A stretch of 64,000 nucleotides of DNA from Promethearchaeota archaeon (lineage in GTDB: Archaea > Asgardarchaeota > Lokiarchaeia > Sigyniarchaeales > SOKP01): contig RDOA01000006.1 in assembly GCA_011364925.1 (NCBI GenBank), positions 52,161 to 116,160 of the forward strand, read 5' to 3'. Position 1 is the first letter of the stretch. Each line of letters opens with the position of its first letter. A program made the position numbers and the translations under genes. The notes below the pieces were generated by a model, which saw only the letters and a list, made by a program, of their open reading frames with translations, had not been told where the DNA came from and did not search any database. Of the stretch, positions 5,631-45,024 are shown piece after piece.

Positions 5631-7088
5631 TTATAATTTGACTTTCTTAAAGTCTACTTGTCCTATTGCTTTAGATATTTTGGAGAGTTCAGTCGTTAAT
5701 GTTACTTCTTTTAGATGTGATTTCCGGATATTCCTTAATTGCGTTAACTGAGGGTTTTCTTCGTTAAATAAGTTAATTTTTTCTTCAGGGTCAGATTTAA
5801 GATCAAATAAAAGCTCCGCATTATTTTGCTCATTATAAATATATTTCAATTGGTTTTTCCTAATAGAAATAAGTTGAAATCCATTTTTACTATTACGTTT
5901 CATTAACCCATCTTTTTGATATGTCTCCGAAATTACACAATCATCTCTTTCTAAAAAACCACCTTCTAATAATGGTAATAGACTTGAACCCTGAAATGAA
6001 TCTGGTATGGGGATACCAAAGTAATCAAGTATTGTAGGAGCAATATCAATTAACTGAACTGTGTTGTTGACTCTCCTTACCAGAGTATTCTTACCGATAT
6101 CAACAATAAACAAAGGTATTCTTAATAATTCATCATATACAATCCCTTGATGGAAAAATTTGTCATGTTCGAAAAATGCTTCACCATGATCAGAGGTAAC
6201 AATAACCAGACAGTTTTTTTGGTATTTTTGGCTCAAAATTTTAAAGAGATAACTTAAGTATGAATCAATATAATTTATCTCTCCATCGTAGAGAATTTTT
6301 AACTTCTCTAACACATCTTTAGAAATACGATGTTTATGAGGATTTCGATAAATGTTGTTATTTAGGAAGTTCCTTTCCTGATTGCTTATATCAACATGAC
6401 TTATCTGAAGAACATTTTTTGAAGGTGGATTGAATGGACTATGAACATCCATAAAATGTGCCCATAAAAACAAGGATTCAGTATGATTTTTAAGAAAAGG
6501 TAAAACTTTATTCGTAATATAAGGAGCATTATATGCGATTGGCGCGAAGGGTAAAAGAATGTCTGTAAGAAATGGTAGTTTATTCCGCAAGAAATTTTTG
6601 AGTTTATTAAAACCTCTTAATCCATAAATCAGTCTCCTAAAAATTTTTTGATAATTCAATATCTTTTTAATGAAGTGAAGTAAATTTGAAGTTTTTTCCT
6701 CATTATCTGGCTTATTCGGATGTTCTTTGAATCTTTCACCATCAAGAAAGACATCAAACCCCCTATGATAATTAAAAAATTTACTTAAATTGGGGTTACT
6801 GTGTATTCCGTAAGTAAAAATACCACTTTCTTTCAGAATTTGAGGAAAGGTTAATTTCTGGGACGGTAAAGGGCTAAATCCTCCATTTATAAGAGGCAAC
6901 ATGGAGGTAAAAATTGATGAAAAAGCAGAAGGTGTTTCTGGTCCATTGGTAAATGCGTTAGAAAAGCTTGTACCATTTTTTACGAACTTTTCTAAATTTG
7001 GTGCCGTATTTCGATGATAACCATATGACTTCAAATGATCTGGCCTTAAAGCATCAATGGTTACTAGAATTACACATTTTTGCACCAT
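5631..7088 (-). CDS. Sulfatase-like AlkP-superfamily enzyme (Thr nucleophile, cytoplasmic)
   Basis: TIDALR, NGPETPSAF, HFMDVH, SDHGE, QLIDIAPT, ELLFDLKSDPEE. No C/S-x-P-x-R motif and no signal peptide. Confidence 0.85.
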   Translation of the reverse strand: MVQKCVILVTIDALRPDHLKSYGYHRNTAPNLEKFVKNGTSFSNAFTNGPETPSAFSSIFTSMLPLINGGFSPLPSQKLTFPQILKESGIFTYGIHSNPNLSKFFNYHRGFDVFLDGERFKEHPNKPDNEEKTSNLLHFIKKILNYQKIFRRLIYGLRGFNKLKNFLRNKLPFLTDILLPFAPIAYNAPYITNKVLPFLKNHTESLFLWAHFMDVHSPFNPPSKNVLQISHVDISNQERNFLNNNIYRNPHKHRISKDVLEKLKILYDGEINYIDSYLSYLFKILSQKYQKNCLVIVTSDHGEAFFEHDKFFHQGIVYDELLRIPLFIVDIGKNTLVRRVNNTVQLIDIAPTILDYFGIPIPDSFQGSSLLPLLEGGFLERDDCVISETYQKDGLMKRNSKNGFQLISIRKNQLKYIYNEQNNAELLFDLKSDPEEKINLFNEENPQLTQLRNIRKSHLKEVTLTTELSKISKAIGQVDFKKVKL

Positions 7089-7182: not shown

Positions 7183-8490
7183 TTAAGTTTTAAATAAATC
7201 TATTGGATCCTTCTCCATATAATAGGGTTTTTCTAGTTTAAATAATTTAAGAATAGTTGGTGCAATTTCTTGATAATGTAGTAGTGGGATTGTCCCCTTT
7301 TTAATGTCTTTTCCATAAGCTATGAACATCCCTTTATTCGTATGACTAAATGTTTCTGTTTTCCTTTTAATAAAGTAAGAGGATTCTGTGGTGAAAAGAT
7401 ATTTATCATCAAGAATCACTACTAAATCAGGAAATCCATTTACATTAAATTCGATTACTTTTTCAATATATTTATCTCTTTCGAGGGTCTCCTTAATTAA
7501 TTGTTTCTTCTTTCTCTCCTCACCAATTAAAAATATCGCGCCTACATTTGATGTAAGCTTTTGAATAAAAGAACGGGGTTTATCCTTATCTAAATGTTGA
7601 AGTGCTCTTTGTTTTTTAAGTTCCGAGTCTCTCTTCTTCGAGATAGCCAATCTATTATATAATTTTTTGGTAAAATCAACCCTCATAATAGGACGTATAT
7701 AATCATAAAGTTTTATAACAAGACTATTTACCTTCAGCTCCCTAGCTTTATTTATGTAAAGTAACCTCTTTTTCTCAAGGAACCGGGGAAAGTGAATAAC
7801 CTTTTTATAAAATTTTAGACCATGGTCACTAAAAATTACAATATTGTCAATAGATTTATTATCAATTAATTCTCCGATAAATTTATCAATTTGTTTATAT
7901 CCAATATTAATGTAAGTATTTACTATCCTTTCGCTACCAAAAACTCGATGAGAAATAGCGTCTGGCACTCGAATAACAAAGGTAAGTAAATTAAAATCCT
8001 CATTTAATTTTTCTAGAAACAGATTTTTCTTGATTTTAAAGGCTTTGAATATCTCTTTTAGCGTTCTACCTTCTATTATCCAATTTTTTTTGTAAATTTG
8101 TTCAAGATTTTTTGGAAATGACGAGAATAAAGGAGATAATATTCCTGCGATCATTTGTCCGTTAATTTCCCAGGCAGGGTATGTTCCAGGGACATTTAAA
8201 GCAAAAATTCGAAGAGCTTTTATTGAAAATATTGATTTATCCCTCCATACATTTGAATTAAAAACACCTTTAATAGGATGGATAAAAGTAAGATAACCTA
8301 GGTTTTCTGGATTTATTCCCGTAAACAAACAAGGCCATGAAGGAATTGTTGTGTGTGGAGTAGTAACTTCTAATTTTGAGGAAAATCCATTTTCAATTAA
8401 ATATTTAAGATTAGGTACTTCATTATTTTCAAGCAAATTTTGAAAACTCTCAAAACAACCTCCATCTATACCGATAATAACATTTTTAAT
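7183..8490 (-). CDS. AlkP-superfamily (type I phosphodiesterase/NPP-like) enzyme (probable ATT start)
   Basis: The frame extends upstream of the called TTG to (I/M)KNVIIGIDGG, which carries the metal-binding Asp. Also TIPSW, PDAISH, SDHG, SH...G.FIAYG, EIAPTIL. Confidence 0.85.
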   Translation of the reverse strand: MKNVIIGIDGGCFESFQNLLENNEVPNLKYLIENGFSSKLEVTTPHTTIPSWPCLFTGINPENLGYLTFIHPIKGVFNSNVWRDKSIFSIKALRIFALNVPGTYPAWEINGQMIAGILSPLFSSFPKNLEQIYKKNWIIEGRTLKEIFKAFKIKKNLFLEKLNEDFNLLTFVIRVPDAISHRVFGSERIVNTYINIGYKQIDKFIGELIDNKSIDNIVIFSDHGLKFYKKVIHFPRFLEKKRLLYINKARELKVNSLVIKLYDYIRPIMRVDFTKKLYNRLAISKKRDSELKKQRALQHLDKDKPRSFIQKLTSNVGAIFLIGEERKKKQLIKETLERDKYIEKVIEFNVNGFPDLVVILDDKYLFTTESSYFIKRKTETFSHTNKGMFIAYGKDIKKGTIPLLHYQEIAPTILKLFKLEKPYYMEKDPIDLFKT

Positions 8491-23752: not shown

Positions 23753-23862
23753 AAAAATTTTTAAAAATTTTTAAAAAGCATCTTCTTCTGAAGTCCTATT
23801 TGAAGTTTACCAACTTTAAATATATAGGTAAACATAAAAAGAAGAGTTTTTTAATTATGTAT

Positions 23863-23886
23863 AATGAAATATAATTATATTTCATT
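23863..23886. promoter_or_regulatory. Perfect 24-bp palindrome, candidate operator of the RHH-sat-AlkP-cysC operon
   Basis: AATGAAATATAA|TTATATTTCATT, flanked by ATGTAT (23857-62) and ATACAT (23890-95), 41 nt before the RHH ATG. Confidence 0.55.
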
Positions 23887-23927
23887 TGTATACATTAACA
23901 AAATTATTGAAATGGTTTGAAATTAAA

Positions 23928-24167
23928 ATGTCTGAAGACGAACACAAGGTTGAATATACAACTGTTTCTATCCCTAAACCCTTAGCGGATAAAGTAAAGG
24001 AGCGAATGAAAGGAACAGGCTTTTCATCTGTATCAAGTTATGTTACATATGTACTTAGGCAGGTATTATCCTCAATAGAGCAAGATGAAAAATCAAAACA
24101 AGCGTTTACTAAAGATGAGGAGGATAAAGTCAAACAACGCCTACGAGATTTAGGTTATATCGATTAA
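23928..24167 (+). CDS. CopG/ribbon-helix-helix protein with C-terminal RLxxLGY tail
   Basis: YTTVSIPKPLADKVKE...GFSSVSSYVTYVLR RHH pattern, ending EEDKVKQRLRDLGYID. ATG at 23928. Confidence 0.85.
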   Translation: MSEDEHKVEYTTVSIPKPLADKVKERMKGTGFSSVSSYVTYVLRQVLSSIEQDEKSKQAFTKDEEDKVKQRLRDLGYID

Positions 24168-24199: not shown

Positions 24200-25348
24200 A
24201 TGATACATCCACATGGTGGTACATTAATTAATAAGAACTTGCCTGAGATTGAGAAACAAAAAATTTTAGGTGAAAAAGACGAATTTGTGAAAATTCCTAT
24301 AGATTCTGAAACCAAGAAAGTGATAAAGAGTATTGCGTTTGGAATATTTAGCCCGTTAGAAGGATTTATGAATGAAAATGATACTCTGAATGTTCTTGAC
24401 CATATGTATCTAGAAAGTAACATCGCATGGCCTTTTCCCATTGTTTTAGATATTTCAAAGGAGGAGTCCCAAAGGATAAATATCGATGACCATGTAATTT
24501 TAACAAGCATTTCAGATGGACCAATAGCTTTACTCAAAGTAGAAGATATTTACGATTATAATAAAAAGATCTTTGCTGAGAAAGTTTATGGAACAAATGA
24601 TATTAACCATCCCGGAGTTGCAAAGCTATTTAGCCAAAAAGAGAAACTAATTGGTGGTGAGATATTTCTTATCAACGAATTTCCTGCGCAATTTCCAGAA
24701 TTGGACTTAAAACCTATAGAAACGAGAGTTCTTTTTAAAACAAGAGGTTGGGATAAAGTTGTTGCCTTTCAAACAAGAAATCCACCGCATTTAGGTCATG
24801 AATACATTCAAAAGGCAGGATTAACTTTCGTTGACGGTCTTTTTATAAATCCTGTGATAGGAAAAAAGAAAACGGGAGATTTTCGTGATGAGGTAATAAT
24901 TAATGCTTACAAAGCCTTAATTGAAAATTATTACCCTCAAAATCGAGTAGTATTAAGCACATTTGAAACAGAAATGAGATACGCTGGACCAAAAGAGGCA
25001 ATTTTTCATGCAATCGCTCGTAAAAATTTTGGATGTGATCACATAATAATTGGACGAGATCATGCTGGTGTTGGCAATTACTACGGTCCCTACGATGCTC
25101 ATAAAATTTTCGAGAATTTCCCAGATTTAGGAATCGAACCTTTATTTTTTAGATCGTTTTCATATTGTTCTAAATGTAACTCAATAGTAAACGATAAAAT
25201 TTGCCCCCATTCTGCAGATCTTCATAAATTTTTCAGTGGATCTCAAATTAGAGATACTTTATTATCTGGTAAACAACCACAATCAGATGTTATGAGACCT
25301 GAAATAGCAAATATTATTCTAAATTATAAAAATCCATTTTGTGAGTAA
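24200..25348 (+). CDS. sat: Sulfate adenylyltransferase
   Basis: PHGG, FSPLEGFM, FQTRNPPHLGHE, MRYAGPKEA, GRDHAGVG, Zn motif CSKC...CPH, MRPE. Confidence 0.97.
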   Translation: MIHPHGGTLINKNLPEIEKQKILGEKDEFVKIPIDSETKKVIKSIAFGIFSPLEGFMNENDTLNVLDHMYLESNIAWPFPIVLDISKEESQRINIDDHVILTSISDGPIALLKVEDIYDYNKKIFAEKVYGTNDINHPGVAKLFSQKEKLIGGEIFLINEFPAQFPELDLKPIETRVLFKTRGWDKVVAFQTRNPPHLGHEYIQKAGLTFVDGLFINPVIGKKKTGDFRDEVIINAYKALIENYYPQNRVVLSTFETEMRYAGPKEAIFHAIARKNFGCDHIIIGRDHAGVGNYYGPYDAHKIFENFPDLGIEPLFFRSFSYCSKCNSIVNDKICPHSADLHKFFSGSQIRDTLLSGKQPQSDVMRPEIANIILNYKNPFCE

Positions 25349-25357
25349 AGTATTACC

Positions 25358-26743
25358 TTGACACAGAAGAAGAGAGTCTTAGTAATTGGATTGGATTGTG
25401 CTACACCTAAGACCTTATTTGAAGATTTCATAGAACATTGTCCTAATATTAGAAATCTCATGGATAATGGTGTTTATGGAAAATTACGGAGTTCAGATCC
25501 ACCCATCACTGTTCCTGCTTGGATGATAATGTCAACGGGTCGCAATGCAGGAGAACTTGGACTCTATGGATTTCGGCACAGGAAGGGTAATTCTTATTCA
25601 GATTTTTGGGTCGCTAATTCTCAAAGCGTAAAAGAACTTAAGATATGGGATATTATTGCCAAGAAGGGTTTAAAATCTATAATTGTCGGTGTCCCTCCTA
25701 CTTTTCCAGCTCAGCCGATCAATGGAAATCTTATTACAGGTTTTATTACACCTGACACCCTTTCACAATTTACATTCCCTCCTGAGTTAAAAGAAGAAAT
25801 ACTTCATGTCGTTAAAGACTACGAGTTTGATGTAAAGTTTAGAACAGATAACAAGGAACAACTTCTGATTGATCTATATAAACTTACAAGGAAACATTTT
25901 GAAGTAGTGAAATATTTAATAATGAATAAGGAATGGGATTATTGTCAATTTGTCATCATCGGTTTAGATCGATTTCACCACGCATTTTGGAAATATTACG
26001 ATAAGAGTCATCACAAATACGAACCAGGGAACATCTTTGAAAGTGCTATGAAAAAGTTCTATAATTTCCTCGACAATCAAATTGGGGACCTGCTTAAACT
26101 CTTGAACAAAAATGATGTAGTTATTATTGCCTCAGATCACGGCGCAAAAGCGATGAAAGGTTGTTTATGCGTAAATATGGCTTTAGAACAACTTGGATTG
26201 CTGAAATTCAAAGAAAAACCTACTGCTAAAACAAGATTAGAAGACGCAGAGATTGACTGGAAGAATACTTATGCTTGGGGTTGGGGCGGTTATTATGCAA
26301 GAGTATTTTTAAATGTAAAAGGTAGGGAGTCAACGGGAATAATTGAACCAGAAGAATATGAAAAATGGAGAGAGAAATTAATAGCTTTATTGAAACAAAT
26401 CACTGATGATAAAGGAGAACCAATGGATACTAAGATTTATAAACCAGAAGATTTATATCAAATTGTGCGTGGAGATGCTCCAGATCTTATGGTATACTTC
26501 GATGATTTAAATTGGAGGTCTGCTGGGACTGTTGGATATGAATCAATGTATCTCGATGAAAATGATACTGGTCCAGATGATGCTGTACACGATTATTATG
26601 GAATATTTGTAATTTCTTCTTTAAATCGAAAAATTGGCAAAGATTTAGAAGTGAAAAGTATTTTAGACATAACTCCTACAATATTAAATATCTTGGGGAT
26701 AGAAATTCCGGAAGATCTAAAAGGAACGATTATAGAATTTTAA
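25358..26743 (+). CDS. AlkP-superfamily (type I phosphodiesterase-like) enzyme within the sat-cysC operon
   Basis: IGLDCA, PPITVPAW, DRFHH, SDHG, GPDDAVH, DITPTIL. No signal peptide. Confidence 0.9.
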   Translation: MTQKKRVLVIGLDCATPKTLFEDFIEHCPNIRNLMDNGVYGKLRSSDPPITVPAWMIMSTGRNAGELGLYGFRHRKGNSYSDFWVANSQSVKELKIWDIIAKKGLKSIIVGVPPTFPAQPINGNLITGFITPDTLSQFTFPPELKEEILHVVKDYEFDVKFRTDNKEQLLIDLYKLTRKHFEVVKYLIMNKEWDYCQFVIIGLDRFHHAFWKYYDKSHHKYEPGNIFESAMKKFYNFLDNQIGDLLKLLNKNDVVIIASDHGAKAMKGCLCVNMALEQLGLLKFKEKPTAKTRLEDAEIDWKNTYAWGWGGYYARVFLNVKGRESTGIIEPEEYEKWREKLIALLKQITDDKGEPMDTKIYKPEDLYQIVRGDAPDLMVYFDDLNWRSAGTVGYESMYLDENDTGPDDAVHDYYGIFVISSLNRKIGKDLEVKSILDITPTILNILGIEIPEDLKGTIIEF

Positions 26744-26769: not shown

Positions 26770-27303
26770 ATGGAGCATAAAGGATTCACATTATGGTTTA
26801 CAGGGCTTGCCTGTTCGGGAAAATCTGTTTTAGCTAATGTCGTAGCCGAAGATCTTAAAAAACGAGGGATGAAAGTTGAACGTCTTGATGGAGATATTGT
26901 AAGAAAAGGTTTAACGCGAGATTTAGGATTCTCAGACGAGGATAGAAGAATGAATATTGAAAGAGTTACATTTGTGGCAAAATTGTTGACTAGAAACGGA
27001 GTAGCAGTTTTAGCTTCTTTTATATCTCCTTTTAACGATATTAGGGCTTACTCTCGTAAAGAGATTGGAACTTATATTTTAGTGTATGTAAAATGTCCCA
27101 TCGAAGTATGTGAACAAAGAGATATAAAGGGGATGTACGCAAAAGCCAGAGCTGGCGAAATCAAGCAGTTTACAGGTATTGATTCACCGTTTGAGGAACC
27201 AAATAAGGCTGATATTGTTGTAGAAACTGATAAGCAAACGATTGAAGAGAGCAAGAAAGTAATTTTAGATGCCTTGAGTGAGATGGGATATTTACCAGAT
27301 TAA
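26770..27303 (+). CDS. cysC: Adenylyl-sulfate kinase
   Basis: WFTGLACSGKS, LDGD.VR, DLGFS..DR..N, ISP, RD.KG.Y..AR.G.I..FTGIDSPFEEP. Confidence 0.97.
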   Translation: MEHKGFTLWFTGLACSGKSVLANVVAEDLKKRGMKVERLDGDIVRKGLTRDLGFSDEDRRMNIERVTFVAKLLTRNGVAVLASFISPFNDIRAYSRKEIGTYILVYVKCPIEVCEQRDIKGMYAKARAGEIKQFTGIDSPFEEPNKADIVVETDKQTIEESKKVILDALSEMGYLPD

Positions 27304-43692: not shown

Positions 43693-45024
43693 ATGCAAAA
43701 ATTAATCTTCTTAGCCTTAGATGGATTAAGTTGGAATATGATCGAAGAATTAATTGCTAATAAGCAATTAACTAATATTAAAGCCTTAATCGACTCAGGC
43801 TCTTCAGCACTTTTAAAAGCTGAGGGTTTTTTAAGCTCTCCAAAAATTTTTTGTTCAATCTTCACTGGTAAAAAAGTGGAAAAGCATGGGATTAGGGATT
43901 TTTACTCGAAAGAAGAAGATTTATGTTCTGAGCAGATTTGGGATATCTTAAACCAAGATGGAATTAAAGTTGGTCTGTATAGACCGTTGAGTGTTTGGTC
44001 TGCTAGAGATTTAGGTGGATTCTGTATACCTAATCCTTTACTATTAGAAAAAGAAACATTTCCTCAAAATTTAAGCTTCATTGGAGAACTTGACAAAAAA
44101 GCTCGATCAGAAAAGTATTCTCTCGCTTTTTTATTAAAATTTTTCTGGAAACTCGTAAAATTTGGCTTTCCATTAGGTGAGTTAAGTAAAATTATTAAAA
44201 GAGGTGTTTTATTGTTTTTTAAAAAAGGATTGGAAGAAAGAATGCACCTCTTAAAAGAAATAGAACTAATTATTCATACAAATTTATATTACAAGTTATT
44301 AAAAAAATATTCTTTACAGTTTACTGTATTTTTTGATTACTCGTTTGATACACTAGGTCATATTTATTGGAGGAAGAAAGGCGAAAAATCGAAGTATTCA
44401 AATATTATACCAAAAACATATAGAATTGTTGATAAGTTTGTAGGAAAAGTAATAAGATACGCAAATGAAAACAAATTTCACTTGATTATTTGCTCCGATC
44501 ACGGTTTTGAAAAAATAGAAAAGAATAATCAAAAAAATTACCGCGCTATTAACATATTAAACCTATTAAGAGAATTAGGGTTTTATTACGATGTATACGG
44601 AATTTATATGACTGAAAGCGTTGTATTTCGTTTACGACCAGATTCGTCTGGTTCGTTTAAAGATTTCGAGAGAGCGTTAAGCATAGTAAAATGTGATGGT
44701 AAAAATCTCTTTATTATAAAATCTTATGAAAAGAAACTTATCGTAAAAATTAACGATATTTTTGGAGATAATGAAAATTTAAAGGTTGAGTTACCGAATA
44801 ATAAAACAGTTGTTTTAGGATCCATAATTGATTTTAATCCTGGACACACTGGCACTCATTCTGAGGATAATGGTGTCTTCATAATTAATGGTCCACAGGT
44901 AAAGAAAGGTATAAAAATTAATGAAATAACTCCATACGATATTACACCTACTATCCTAAAGCTTTATGGAAAAGAAGTGCCTATTGACATTGATGGAAGA
45001 GTATTAGAAGAGGTTTTTAAATAA
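43693..45024 (+). CDS. AlkP-superfamily enzyme (probable Ser nucleophile, cytoplasmic)
   Basis: LALDGL, LSSPKIFCSIFTG, DTLGH, SDHGF, GTH, DITPTIL, DGRVL. Confidence 0.85.
   Translation: MQKLIFLALDGLSWNMIEELIANKQLTNIKALIDSGSSALLKAEGFLSSPKIFCSIFTGKKVEKHGIRDFYSKEEDLCSEQIWDILNQDGIKVGLYRPLSVWSARDLGGFCIPNPLLLEKETFPQNLSFIGELDKKARSEKYSLAFLLKFFWKLVKFGFPLGELSKIIKRGVLLFFKKGLEERMHLLKEIELIIHTNLYYKLLKKYSLQFTVFFDYSFDTLGHIYWRKKGEKSKYSNIIPKTYRIVDKFVGKVIRYANENKFHLIICSDHGFEKIEKNNQKNYRAINILNLLRELGFYYDVYGIYMTESVVFRLRPDSSGSFKDFERALSIVKCDGKNLFIIKSYEKKLIVKINDIFGDNENLKVELPNNKTVVLGSIIDFNPGHTGTHSEDNGVFIINGPQVKKGIKINEITPYDITPTILKLYGKEVPIDIDGRVLEEVFK

Follow-up and report, generated by a model that had tools for sequence, protein, structure and literature searches.

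A 79-residue RHH protein at the head of a sulfate-activation cassette in a Lokiarchaeial (Promethearchaeota) genome ends in a conserved C-terminal module, here called the LGY tail, which in other archaea and bacteria is also found on enzymes of the sulfate pathway. In our preferred reading, to which we attach a probability of roughly 45%, the RHH protein is the autoregulator of its cassette and the tail docks a sulfuryl-handling enzyme, most probably the tail-less AlkP enzyme of the same operon, with feedback on transcription. The analysis shows the fold of the protein, the conservation of its tail, the range of tail carriers, the synteny of their genes and the complementary distribution of tailed AlkP and tailed RHH proteins; binding of DNA at the upstream palindrome, docking on the AlkP enzyme and the coupling to regulation are inferred.

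The DNA analysed here (the window) is a stretch of 64,000 nucleotides from a genome of 3.9 Mb and 33% GC. Its features are collected in Table 1.

Table 1. Coordinates of the features discussed in the text, in positions of the window.
Feature	Position	Strand	Basis
PF00884 sulfatase, tail-less	5631..7088	-	Pfam
PF01663 protein, tail-less	7183..8436	-	Pfam
AT-rich 24-bp palindrome upstream of the RHH gene, candidate operator	23863..23886 (region 23857-23895)	.	sequence
Gene of the 79-aa RHH protein with LGY tail	23928..24167	+	ORF and translation, homologues
RHH core, residues 9-58: strand TTVSIP, helix 17-27, helix 35-58	23952..24101	+	AF2 model, Foldseek
LGY tail module, residues 60-79, FTKDEEDKVKQRLRDLGYID	24105..24164	+	conservation; common to AlkP, sulfatase and CysC ends
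Tyr77 codon	24156..24158	+	sequence, conservation
sat (ATP sulfurylase), tail-less	24200..25348	+	PF01747 and PUA_2
Operon NPP-type AlkP enzyme, 461 aa, tail-less, candidate tail receptor	25358..26743	+	PF01663, E 1e-44
cysC (APS kinase)	26770..27303	+	PF01583; native tail-like end ...ALSEMGYLPD
PF01663 protein, tail-less	43693..45024	+	Pfam

The small RHH protein

The gene is correctly taken to begin with the ATG at 23928, since almost all of the best 120 of 740 homologues, which come from Asgard metagenomes and share at least 86% identity with the protein, are also 79 residues long. Homologues are labelled as CopG/Arc-MetJ type by several sources, and the family comprises 837 clusters at 50% identity. 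An AF2 model built from 101 homologues (mean pLDDT 85; >90 across residues 11-50) contains a short N-terminal segment, helices at residues 17-27 and 35-58, and a separate tail helix at residues 62-74. As modelled, the protein has the N-terminal beta-strand and the two helices of the RHH superfamily. The top Foldseek rows were almost all RHH proteins (NikR, Arc, ParD, MazE-mt1, CopA, and omega), with an rmsd of 1.1-1.4 A over ~41 residues and weak E values (0.5-6) for this very small fold. Profile searches gave faint signals of the same kind: the only NCBIfam match was a NikR subfamily at E 0.019, far below the cut-off of that model, and a PDB profile search returned NikR at E 0.04, while none of the Pfam RHH models matched at E<=0.01. 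No membrane-type hydrophobic segment is visible in the 79-residue sequence.

Several longer members of the family were also recorded. P0245, P0265, P0310, and P0321 (185-214 aa) carry an extra N-terminal RHH (RHH_1, DUF7557 or RHH_10) ahead of the unit formed by RHH and tail, and P0296 (107 aa) carries two tails in tandem. A search for longer proteins with the tail region returned 10 candidates, with one chimeric-looking match.

Sequence, conservation, and position of the tail

The translation ends in EEDKVKQRLRDLGYID (in a longer view, ...AFTKDEEDKVKQRLRDLGYID), and the ORF bears out the description in the earlier note of a small 79-residue RHH protein with an LGY tail. The tail is laid out as an aromatic residue followed by Ser/Thr, an acidic run, the amphipathic helix 62-74, and a cap formed by Gly76 and Tyr77. 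Tyr77 is the third residue from the C-terminus (position -3), and among family members the tyrosine is followed by one, two or more residues that vary.

The tail is invariant across the best 120 of 740 homologues. Of 150 cluster representatives, whose identity to the query is only ~40-60%, 131 have retained [LMV]GY among their final nine residues; the remaining 19 are mostly truncated or frameshifted calls, and none of the 150 has Phe, Trp or His at the Tyr position. The Gly-Tyr pair is thus effectively invariant, which answers the question raised by the earlier note of whether the tyrosine is conserved. L72, L75, G76, and Y77 are the best-conserved columns of the whole protein in our family alignment (A1), which was pre-selected for a GY end, so that the count of 131/150 is the unbiased figure. 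An Arg and a Lys are also conserved beside the invariant Tyr. That the residue is strictly Tyr and never Phe hints at a role of the hydroxyl beyond packing.

When all ORFs of the 3.9-Mb genome were scored with an HMM of the tail, the RHH protein reached 39.9 bits and the next-best ORF 8.3 bits. The tail is therefore far above chance, and the RHH protein is the sole carrier of a canonical tail in this genome, so that whatever protein it pairs with has to lack the tail. A second small RHH-like ORF of the same genome lies outside the window (G000 contig C54:14479-14691, + strand) and ends in ...NEFENLRLLGYFDE. It scores 4.8 bits with the tail HMM and is probably an unrelated RHH protein with a similar helix cap.

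Tail carriers across archaea and bacteria

We scanned one genome per prokaryotic species with a DNA pattern encoding [DE]3-x-[VIM]-x2-R-L-[RK]-x-L-G-Y-[LIM], for which ~10 matches are expected by chance at uniform composition. The scan returned at least 120 loci from many archaeal and bacterial phyla; in the titled subset (n=80), 34 loci are archaeal and 46 bacterial. Bathyarchaeia, Halobacteria, Thermococcus, Thermoplasmata, ANME-1, and DPANN are represented among the archaeal loci, and Planctomycetota, Chloroflexota, Acidobacteriota, Aminicenantes, Omnitrophota, and Patescibacteria among the bacterial ones. The motif lies 0-4 residues ahead of the stop codon in 118/120 matches listed, and the tail is a strictly C-terminal module.

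Carriers were typed by clustering all ORFs of the at least 120 tail loci and by a Pfam scan. Among the loci listed, 88 tailed proteins are small RHH proteins. APS kinases (PF01583) follow with 16 tailed proteins out of 39, the full LGY tail being added after the native ...LGYLP end of CysC. About 16-17 PF01663 enzymes and 6 of the 17 PF00884 sulfatases listed are tailed, as are a few DUF2061 membrane proteins and singletons. CysD (PF01507) in these loci has a native end, ...MMQKLRALGYM, that is related to the tail. None of the 45 sat proteins is tailed. Some operons encode two or three tailed proteins, such as a tailed RHH protein with a tailed CysC, or two tailed RHH proteins with CysD.

The neighbours of the tail in the at least 120 loci include sat, AlkP, CysC, CysD/CysN, sulfatases, a sodium:sulfate symporter, and DHH phosphoesterase, together with classical sulfotransferases, glycosyltransferases, sugar-nucleotide enzymes, and epimerases. 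An AlkP, sulfatase, sat or CysD gene lies within ~4 kb in 68 of the 78 tailed-RHH loci among the matches listed, where the gene directly downstream of the tailed RHH is sat in 31 cases, AlkP in 7, a 273-aa family in 7, CysD in 4, and a sulfotransferase in 3. The tail marks a neighbourhood of sulfate activation and sulfation. This association was not built into the search, because the tail peptide alone was the query.

Some further ORFs with tail-like ends were noted. Two small membrane proteins of one ORF cluster, encoded at L039:6371-6625 (-) and L145:1209-1508 (+), end in ...KKLRDLGYI and ...QLREMGYID, respectively; the representative of their cluster (L115:3230-3490, - strand) is a DUF2061 protein (PF09834), and both genes adjoin cysD/cysN or cysC. 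A 31-codon ORF at L132:3231-3326 (-) encodes little beyond a tail (...EEEDKVKKRLRSLGYLD) in a locus with sulfatase-family and AlkP-family genes, and is overlapped in another frame by a 69-aa ORF; it may represent a tail gene of its own or else a gene broken by a frameshift.

PDB searches found no solved protein with the tail, no Pfam family or NCBIfam model for it was found, and literature searches with motif strings and the operon found no paper that describes it. The tail looks like an undescribed tag of the sulfate pathway.

AlkP-superfamily enzymes with and without the tail

The window encodes three PF01663 proteins and one PF00884 protein, and the tail is present on 0/4. The earlier note had read these four endings from the sequence as free of the motif, and the translations agree with it; its statement that many AlkP/sulfatase proteins carry such a tail was also sound, as real tailed sequences of both PF01663 and PF00884 exist. 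In a search of 301 Asgard genomes with the RHH protein, tail-only matches appeared at the C-termini of long ORFs. Tailed AlkP-type ORFs among these end in ...EEDEVIERLRDLGYLD, ...EDIEKIKKRLRNLGYLD, and ...EEEEIKDRLRDLGYID; the Pfam scan covered the two complete ones, both of them PF01663 proteins, and the third is a 156-aa fragment at a contig end.

Tailed AlkP enzymes and tailed RHH proteins have a complementary distribution. Among the matches listed, the tail is found on none of the operon-type AlkP enzymes beside a tailed RHH protein (0/45 loci), and the about 16-17 tailed AlkP relatives have no tailed RHH protein within ~4 kb. The Asgard orthologues of the operon AlkP (~461 aa) are likewise tail-less (0/120). 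Compared with the four AlkP-type proteins of the window, the tailed enzymes are nearest to the operon enzyme at 25358 (24-32% identity). Such a distribution, fused in some genomes and separate in others, is what action of the tail in trans on the enzyme would predict. The proposal of the earlier note that the tail is supplied in trans is thus strengthened by the portability of the module and by the complementarity of AlkP and RHH. A narrower version, in which the tail is a missing part specific to AlkP enzymes, did not stand: the tail occurs on CysC, a related end is found on CysD, and some tailed RHH genes lie directly upstream of classical sulfotransferase genes without any AlkP nearby.

An AF2 model of a tailed Asgard AlkP (pLDDT 88, pTM 0.89) shows a linker with pLDDT <50 that is followed by a tail helix at residues 556-568 with pLDDT ~93. 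A low-confidence linker with a confidently placed helix is the look expected of a tethered, docked peptide, as far as the model goes. In the isolated RHH model, the tail reaches a pLDDT of 78-85 with no partner present, therefore high confidence alone is no proof of docking. Residues 9-537 of the model of the tailed AlkP align with ENPP1 and Xac NPP (Z 29), and the tail (residues 556-573) falls outside this aligned core. The NPP catalytic core with its Thr nucleophile and metal ligands is present, and the PPIT.PAW and SDHG motifs are conserved.

With regard to the other AlkP-type genes of the window, orthologues of the sulfatase at 5631 were found in 4/5 cassette-positive and 0/5 cassette-negative genomes of the same genus, and orthologues of the PF01663 protein at 7183 in 2/5 and 0/5, respectively, in what is a small sample of related genomes. 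A need for PAPS explains this co-occurrence as well as a need for the tail does, and the pattern fits a PAPS-dependent role of both proteins in the glycan locus. Orthologues of the enzyme at 43693 (62-68% identity) are present in 2/5 genomes of the genus that have no RHH cassette, both of them near-complete. Therefore, the 43693 enzyme does not need the tail. APS kinase is present in 4/5 genomes with a stand-alone tailed AlkP compared with 11/14 controls, the family being a common one.

The sulfate-activation cassette and its upstream element

The operon of the window consists of four co-oriented genes with short gaps (the RHH gene, sat, AlkP, and cysC), and no P-loop sulfotransferase was found in it by Pfam. 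In Asgard loci, sat is the next gene after the RHH gene in 30/30 cases. The same RHH-sat-AlkP-cysC order is found in Thermococcus, Aminicenantes, Armatimonadetes, and others, and RHH-cysD-cysN is an alternative conserved order of the cassette. The RHH protein occurs in 91/301 Asgard genomes and an orthologue of the operon AlkP in 70/301. As the earlier note had anticipated for tail-less AlkP genes and RHH-fused tails, the two go together: 67 of the 70 AlkP-positive genomes also have the RHH protein, and in most of them the two genes share a contig and are no more than a few kb apart. In the window's own genus, the cassette is present in only about a third of the genomes. The RHH protein and the operon AlkP are co-inherited as a patchy cassette in Asgard archaea, and the cassette is horizontally widespread.

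Two observations concern the enzymes of the cassette. In a Roseiflexaceae MAG, an 889-aa ORF (L099:3919-6588, - strand) matches both sat and an NPP-type AlkP and is a natural fusion, which is therefore an argument for joint action of sat and AlkP. The end of the cysC gene of the window (27250-27303, ...KKVILDALSEMGYLPD) encodes a native helix and cap that share the I/V-x3-L-x2-[LM]-G-Y-L spacing with the tail, a tail-like end (...ALSEMGYLPD) that the earlier note had missed.

Upstream of the RHH gene, 15/30 Asgard loci have a ATTAAATATAAT-type motif at a distance of 30-55 nt from the start codon, compared with 1.5-5% of composition-matched genome windows, which corresponds to an enrichment of ~10-30 times over background. 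Judged from its sequence, this AT-rich element is likely to be the operator.

Possible roles of the tail

The RHH fold, the first position in the operon, and the conserved AT-rich motif point to a regulator and not to a stoichiometric carrier. In our preferred reading, the RHH protein at the head of the RHH-sat-NPP-type AlkP-cysC cassette most likely autoregulates it and would bind DNA at the upstream palindrome. Its last 20 residues would act as a portable module, composed of a flexible acidic linker, an amphipathic helix, and the Gly-Tyr cap, through which the protein docks on a pathway enzyme that handles sulfuryl groups. As the receptor, the tail-less AlkP encoded two genes downstream, whose stand-alone relatives are tailed themselves, would be the best candidate. 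Binding of the tail to the enzyme may couple enzyme abundance, occupancy or ligand state to repression of the operon, with Tyr77 as a presumed key residue of the interface; covalent chemistry would not be required. Against this reading, some tailed RHH genes lie directly before a classical sulfotransferase or the 273-aa protein in a locus without AlkP, and there are operons with two or three tailed proteins.

Those multi-tail operons (RHH with CysC; two RHH with CysD) would be more readily accommodated if the tail were a self-association helix, which, like the C-terminal helix of the Mnt repressor, joins RHH dimers into tetramers that bind the operator cooperatively, and which forms homo-oligomers or tail-tail hetero-complexes on enzymes. 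The amphipathic helix with its C-cap behind a flexible linker and the tandem tails on some proteins (P0296) are in line with this. However, a generic helix would neither remain nearly identical over unrelated carriers and phyla nor be restricted to sulfate-pathway proteins; tail-tail hetero-complexes are impossible in the present genome with its one tailed protein, and the complementarity of AlkP and RHH is left unexplained, so that we consider self-association unlikely. It is also conceivable that the tail directs the proteins bearing it to one shared receptor encoded elsewhere, such as a scaffold, a membrane site, a chaperone or a protease (the tail then being a degron). When several enzymes of one pathway end in an amphipathic helix, this is a typical sign of cargo or encapsulation peptides, and DUF2061 membrane proteins in tail loci end in the tail too. 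Yet no conserved shell, scaffold or protease gene was found among the neighbour families of the at least 120 loci, and the motif spans archaea and bacteria, whose proteolytic and targeting machineries differ; we regard such addressing as distinctly unlikely.

A sensor of small molecules or ions seems to us quite improbable. Here, the basic face of the tail (K-x-R-L-R) and the Tyr would bind sulfate, APS, PAPS or PAP, as a co-repressor site on the regulator and as an allosteric lid on the enzymes. Co-repressors are known for RHH regulators such as MetJ and NikR, NikR is among the nearest structural matches of our model, an Arg and a Lys are conserved beside the invariant Tyr, and the tail is confined to the pathway; nonetheless, a lone helix of 13 residues is too small for a specific pocket, and we know of no precedent for a sensor of this type. 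The idea that Tyr77 is covalently modified (sulfated, adenylylated or phosphorylated) by an AlkP-fold enzyme or a sulfotransferase and thereafter swings to other AlkP enzymes as a carrier of sulfate, or else senses the PAPS level and switches the regulator, goes back in part to the earlier note. It could account for the invariance of Gly-Tyr, with no Phe in about 130 diverged clusters, and for the flexible linker ahead of the tail. All of the carriers and neighbours deal with sulfuryl groups (sat, CysD, CysC, NPP, sulfatase, sulfotransferase, sulfate symporter), the operon has no P-loop sulfotransferase, the 5631 sulfatase tracks the cassette in the genus (4/5 vs 0/5), and the homologous PAPS reductases have a mobile C-terminal tail with a catalytic Cys. 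On the other hand, a carrier fused to a DNA-binding RHH protein with an operator-like motif upstream would be odd; the tail is also found on CysC, which makes PAPS, and CysD natively ends in a related peptide. Moreover, AlkP 43693 occurs in relatives without the RHH protein, the Tyr is not C-terminal and the residues beyond it vary, and Haloarcula, a genome with a tailed AlkP, has no clear APS kinase. We judge covalent modification very improbable. The same low expectation applies to its most specific form, in which APS or PAPS would be the source of a sulfuryl or nucleotidyl group that the NPP-fold enzyme of the cassette places on Tyr77; the tail would then either donate sulfate to the sulfatase and NPP-like enzymes in the glycan locus, which have no tail, or report the PAPS level directly and so switch the repressor. 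With respect to the claims of the earlier note, we hold to a link between the tail and an enzyme and regard a role as sulfate carrier as less likely.

Several known motifs and systems were considered and rejected. The tail resembles by eye the ESCRT-III MIM1, a ligand of the MIT domain ((D/E)xxLxxRLxxL(K/R)), but it sits on sulfate-pathway proteins and 46/80 titled loci are bacterial. The HbYX motif of proteasome activators does not fit the invariant Gly before the Tyr and the varying distance to the C-terminus. A peptidoglycan-binding domain was suggested merely by a sub-threshold likeness to the first helix of PG_binding_2. An RHH type II antitoxin with an adjacent toxin was dismissed as well; the downstream genes are sat, PF01663, and cysC, and there is no toxin among them.

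Significance and comparison with known systems

Cassettes that make PAPS and contain an embedded NPP-fold enzyme are present in many archaea and bacteria. The shift of an invariant Gly-Tyr module of 20 residues between the regulator of the operon and the enzymes of the pathway points to a physical link between them. If the tail docks the regulator on the enzyme, a metabolic enzyme would be coupled to the transcription of its own operon via an antitoxin-like architecture; if the tyrosine is modified, new sulfation chemistry would be at hand. The finding also bears on glycan sulfation in Asgard archaea.

DltX, a membrane microprotein of the D-alanylation of teichoic acid, works with an MBOAT protein and has a carrier Tyr as its terminal residue. 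Both DltX and the RHH protein are small proteins whose C-terminal Tyr matters; unlike DltX, the RHH protein is soluble, has an RHH fold, carries its Tyr third from the end, and has no MBOAT partner.

The gene cluster of the cassette has already been described at the level of annotation (Jin et al. 2021, PMC8268124). In Pyrococcus yayanosii, PYCH_17520-17560 encode a putative copG transcription factor, ATP sulfurylase, DHH pApase, type I phosphodiesterase/nucleotide pyrophosphatase, and APS kinase, and this sulfate-assimilation cluster was also reported for Eury- and Crenarchaeota (PMC8268124). As given there, the P. yayanosii cluster and the operon of the window have the same copG-sat-NPP-cysC order on one strand, and differ in that only the former has a DHH pApase gene, placed between sat and NPP. 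In the passages of that paper on copG and the gene cluster, the removal of PPi by the NPP and regulation by copG are speculation only, and no mention of the tail was found (PMC8268124).

A relative of the tail is seen in the CysD chain of the CysD-CysN ATP sulfurylase of P. syringae (PDB 1ZUN), which ends in ...EEKKRQGY and one further residue; the archaeal-type CysD proteins with the ...MMQKLRALGYM end come from archaeal and a few bacterial MAGs. In CysD, the peptide belongs to the enzyme itself, whereas the tail of the window is on a separate DNA-binding protein, in a sat operon without CysD or CysN.

The RHH type II antitoxins (ParD, RelB, CcdA, MazE-mt1) are alike in having an N-terminal RHH, the first place in the operon, and a flexible C-terminal peptide that, presumably in the present case too, binds a protein encoded downstream in the operon; the structures nearest to our RHH model include ParD and MazE-mt1. 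They differ in that the downstream genes here encode metabolic enzymes and not a toxin, and that the tail of the window is nearly invariant over phyla and is also fused to enzymes, which antitoxin tails are not. By analogy with these antitoxins, the cassette may represent the design of an RHH protein with a partner-binding tail, attached here to a widespread and poorly understood sulfation cassette.
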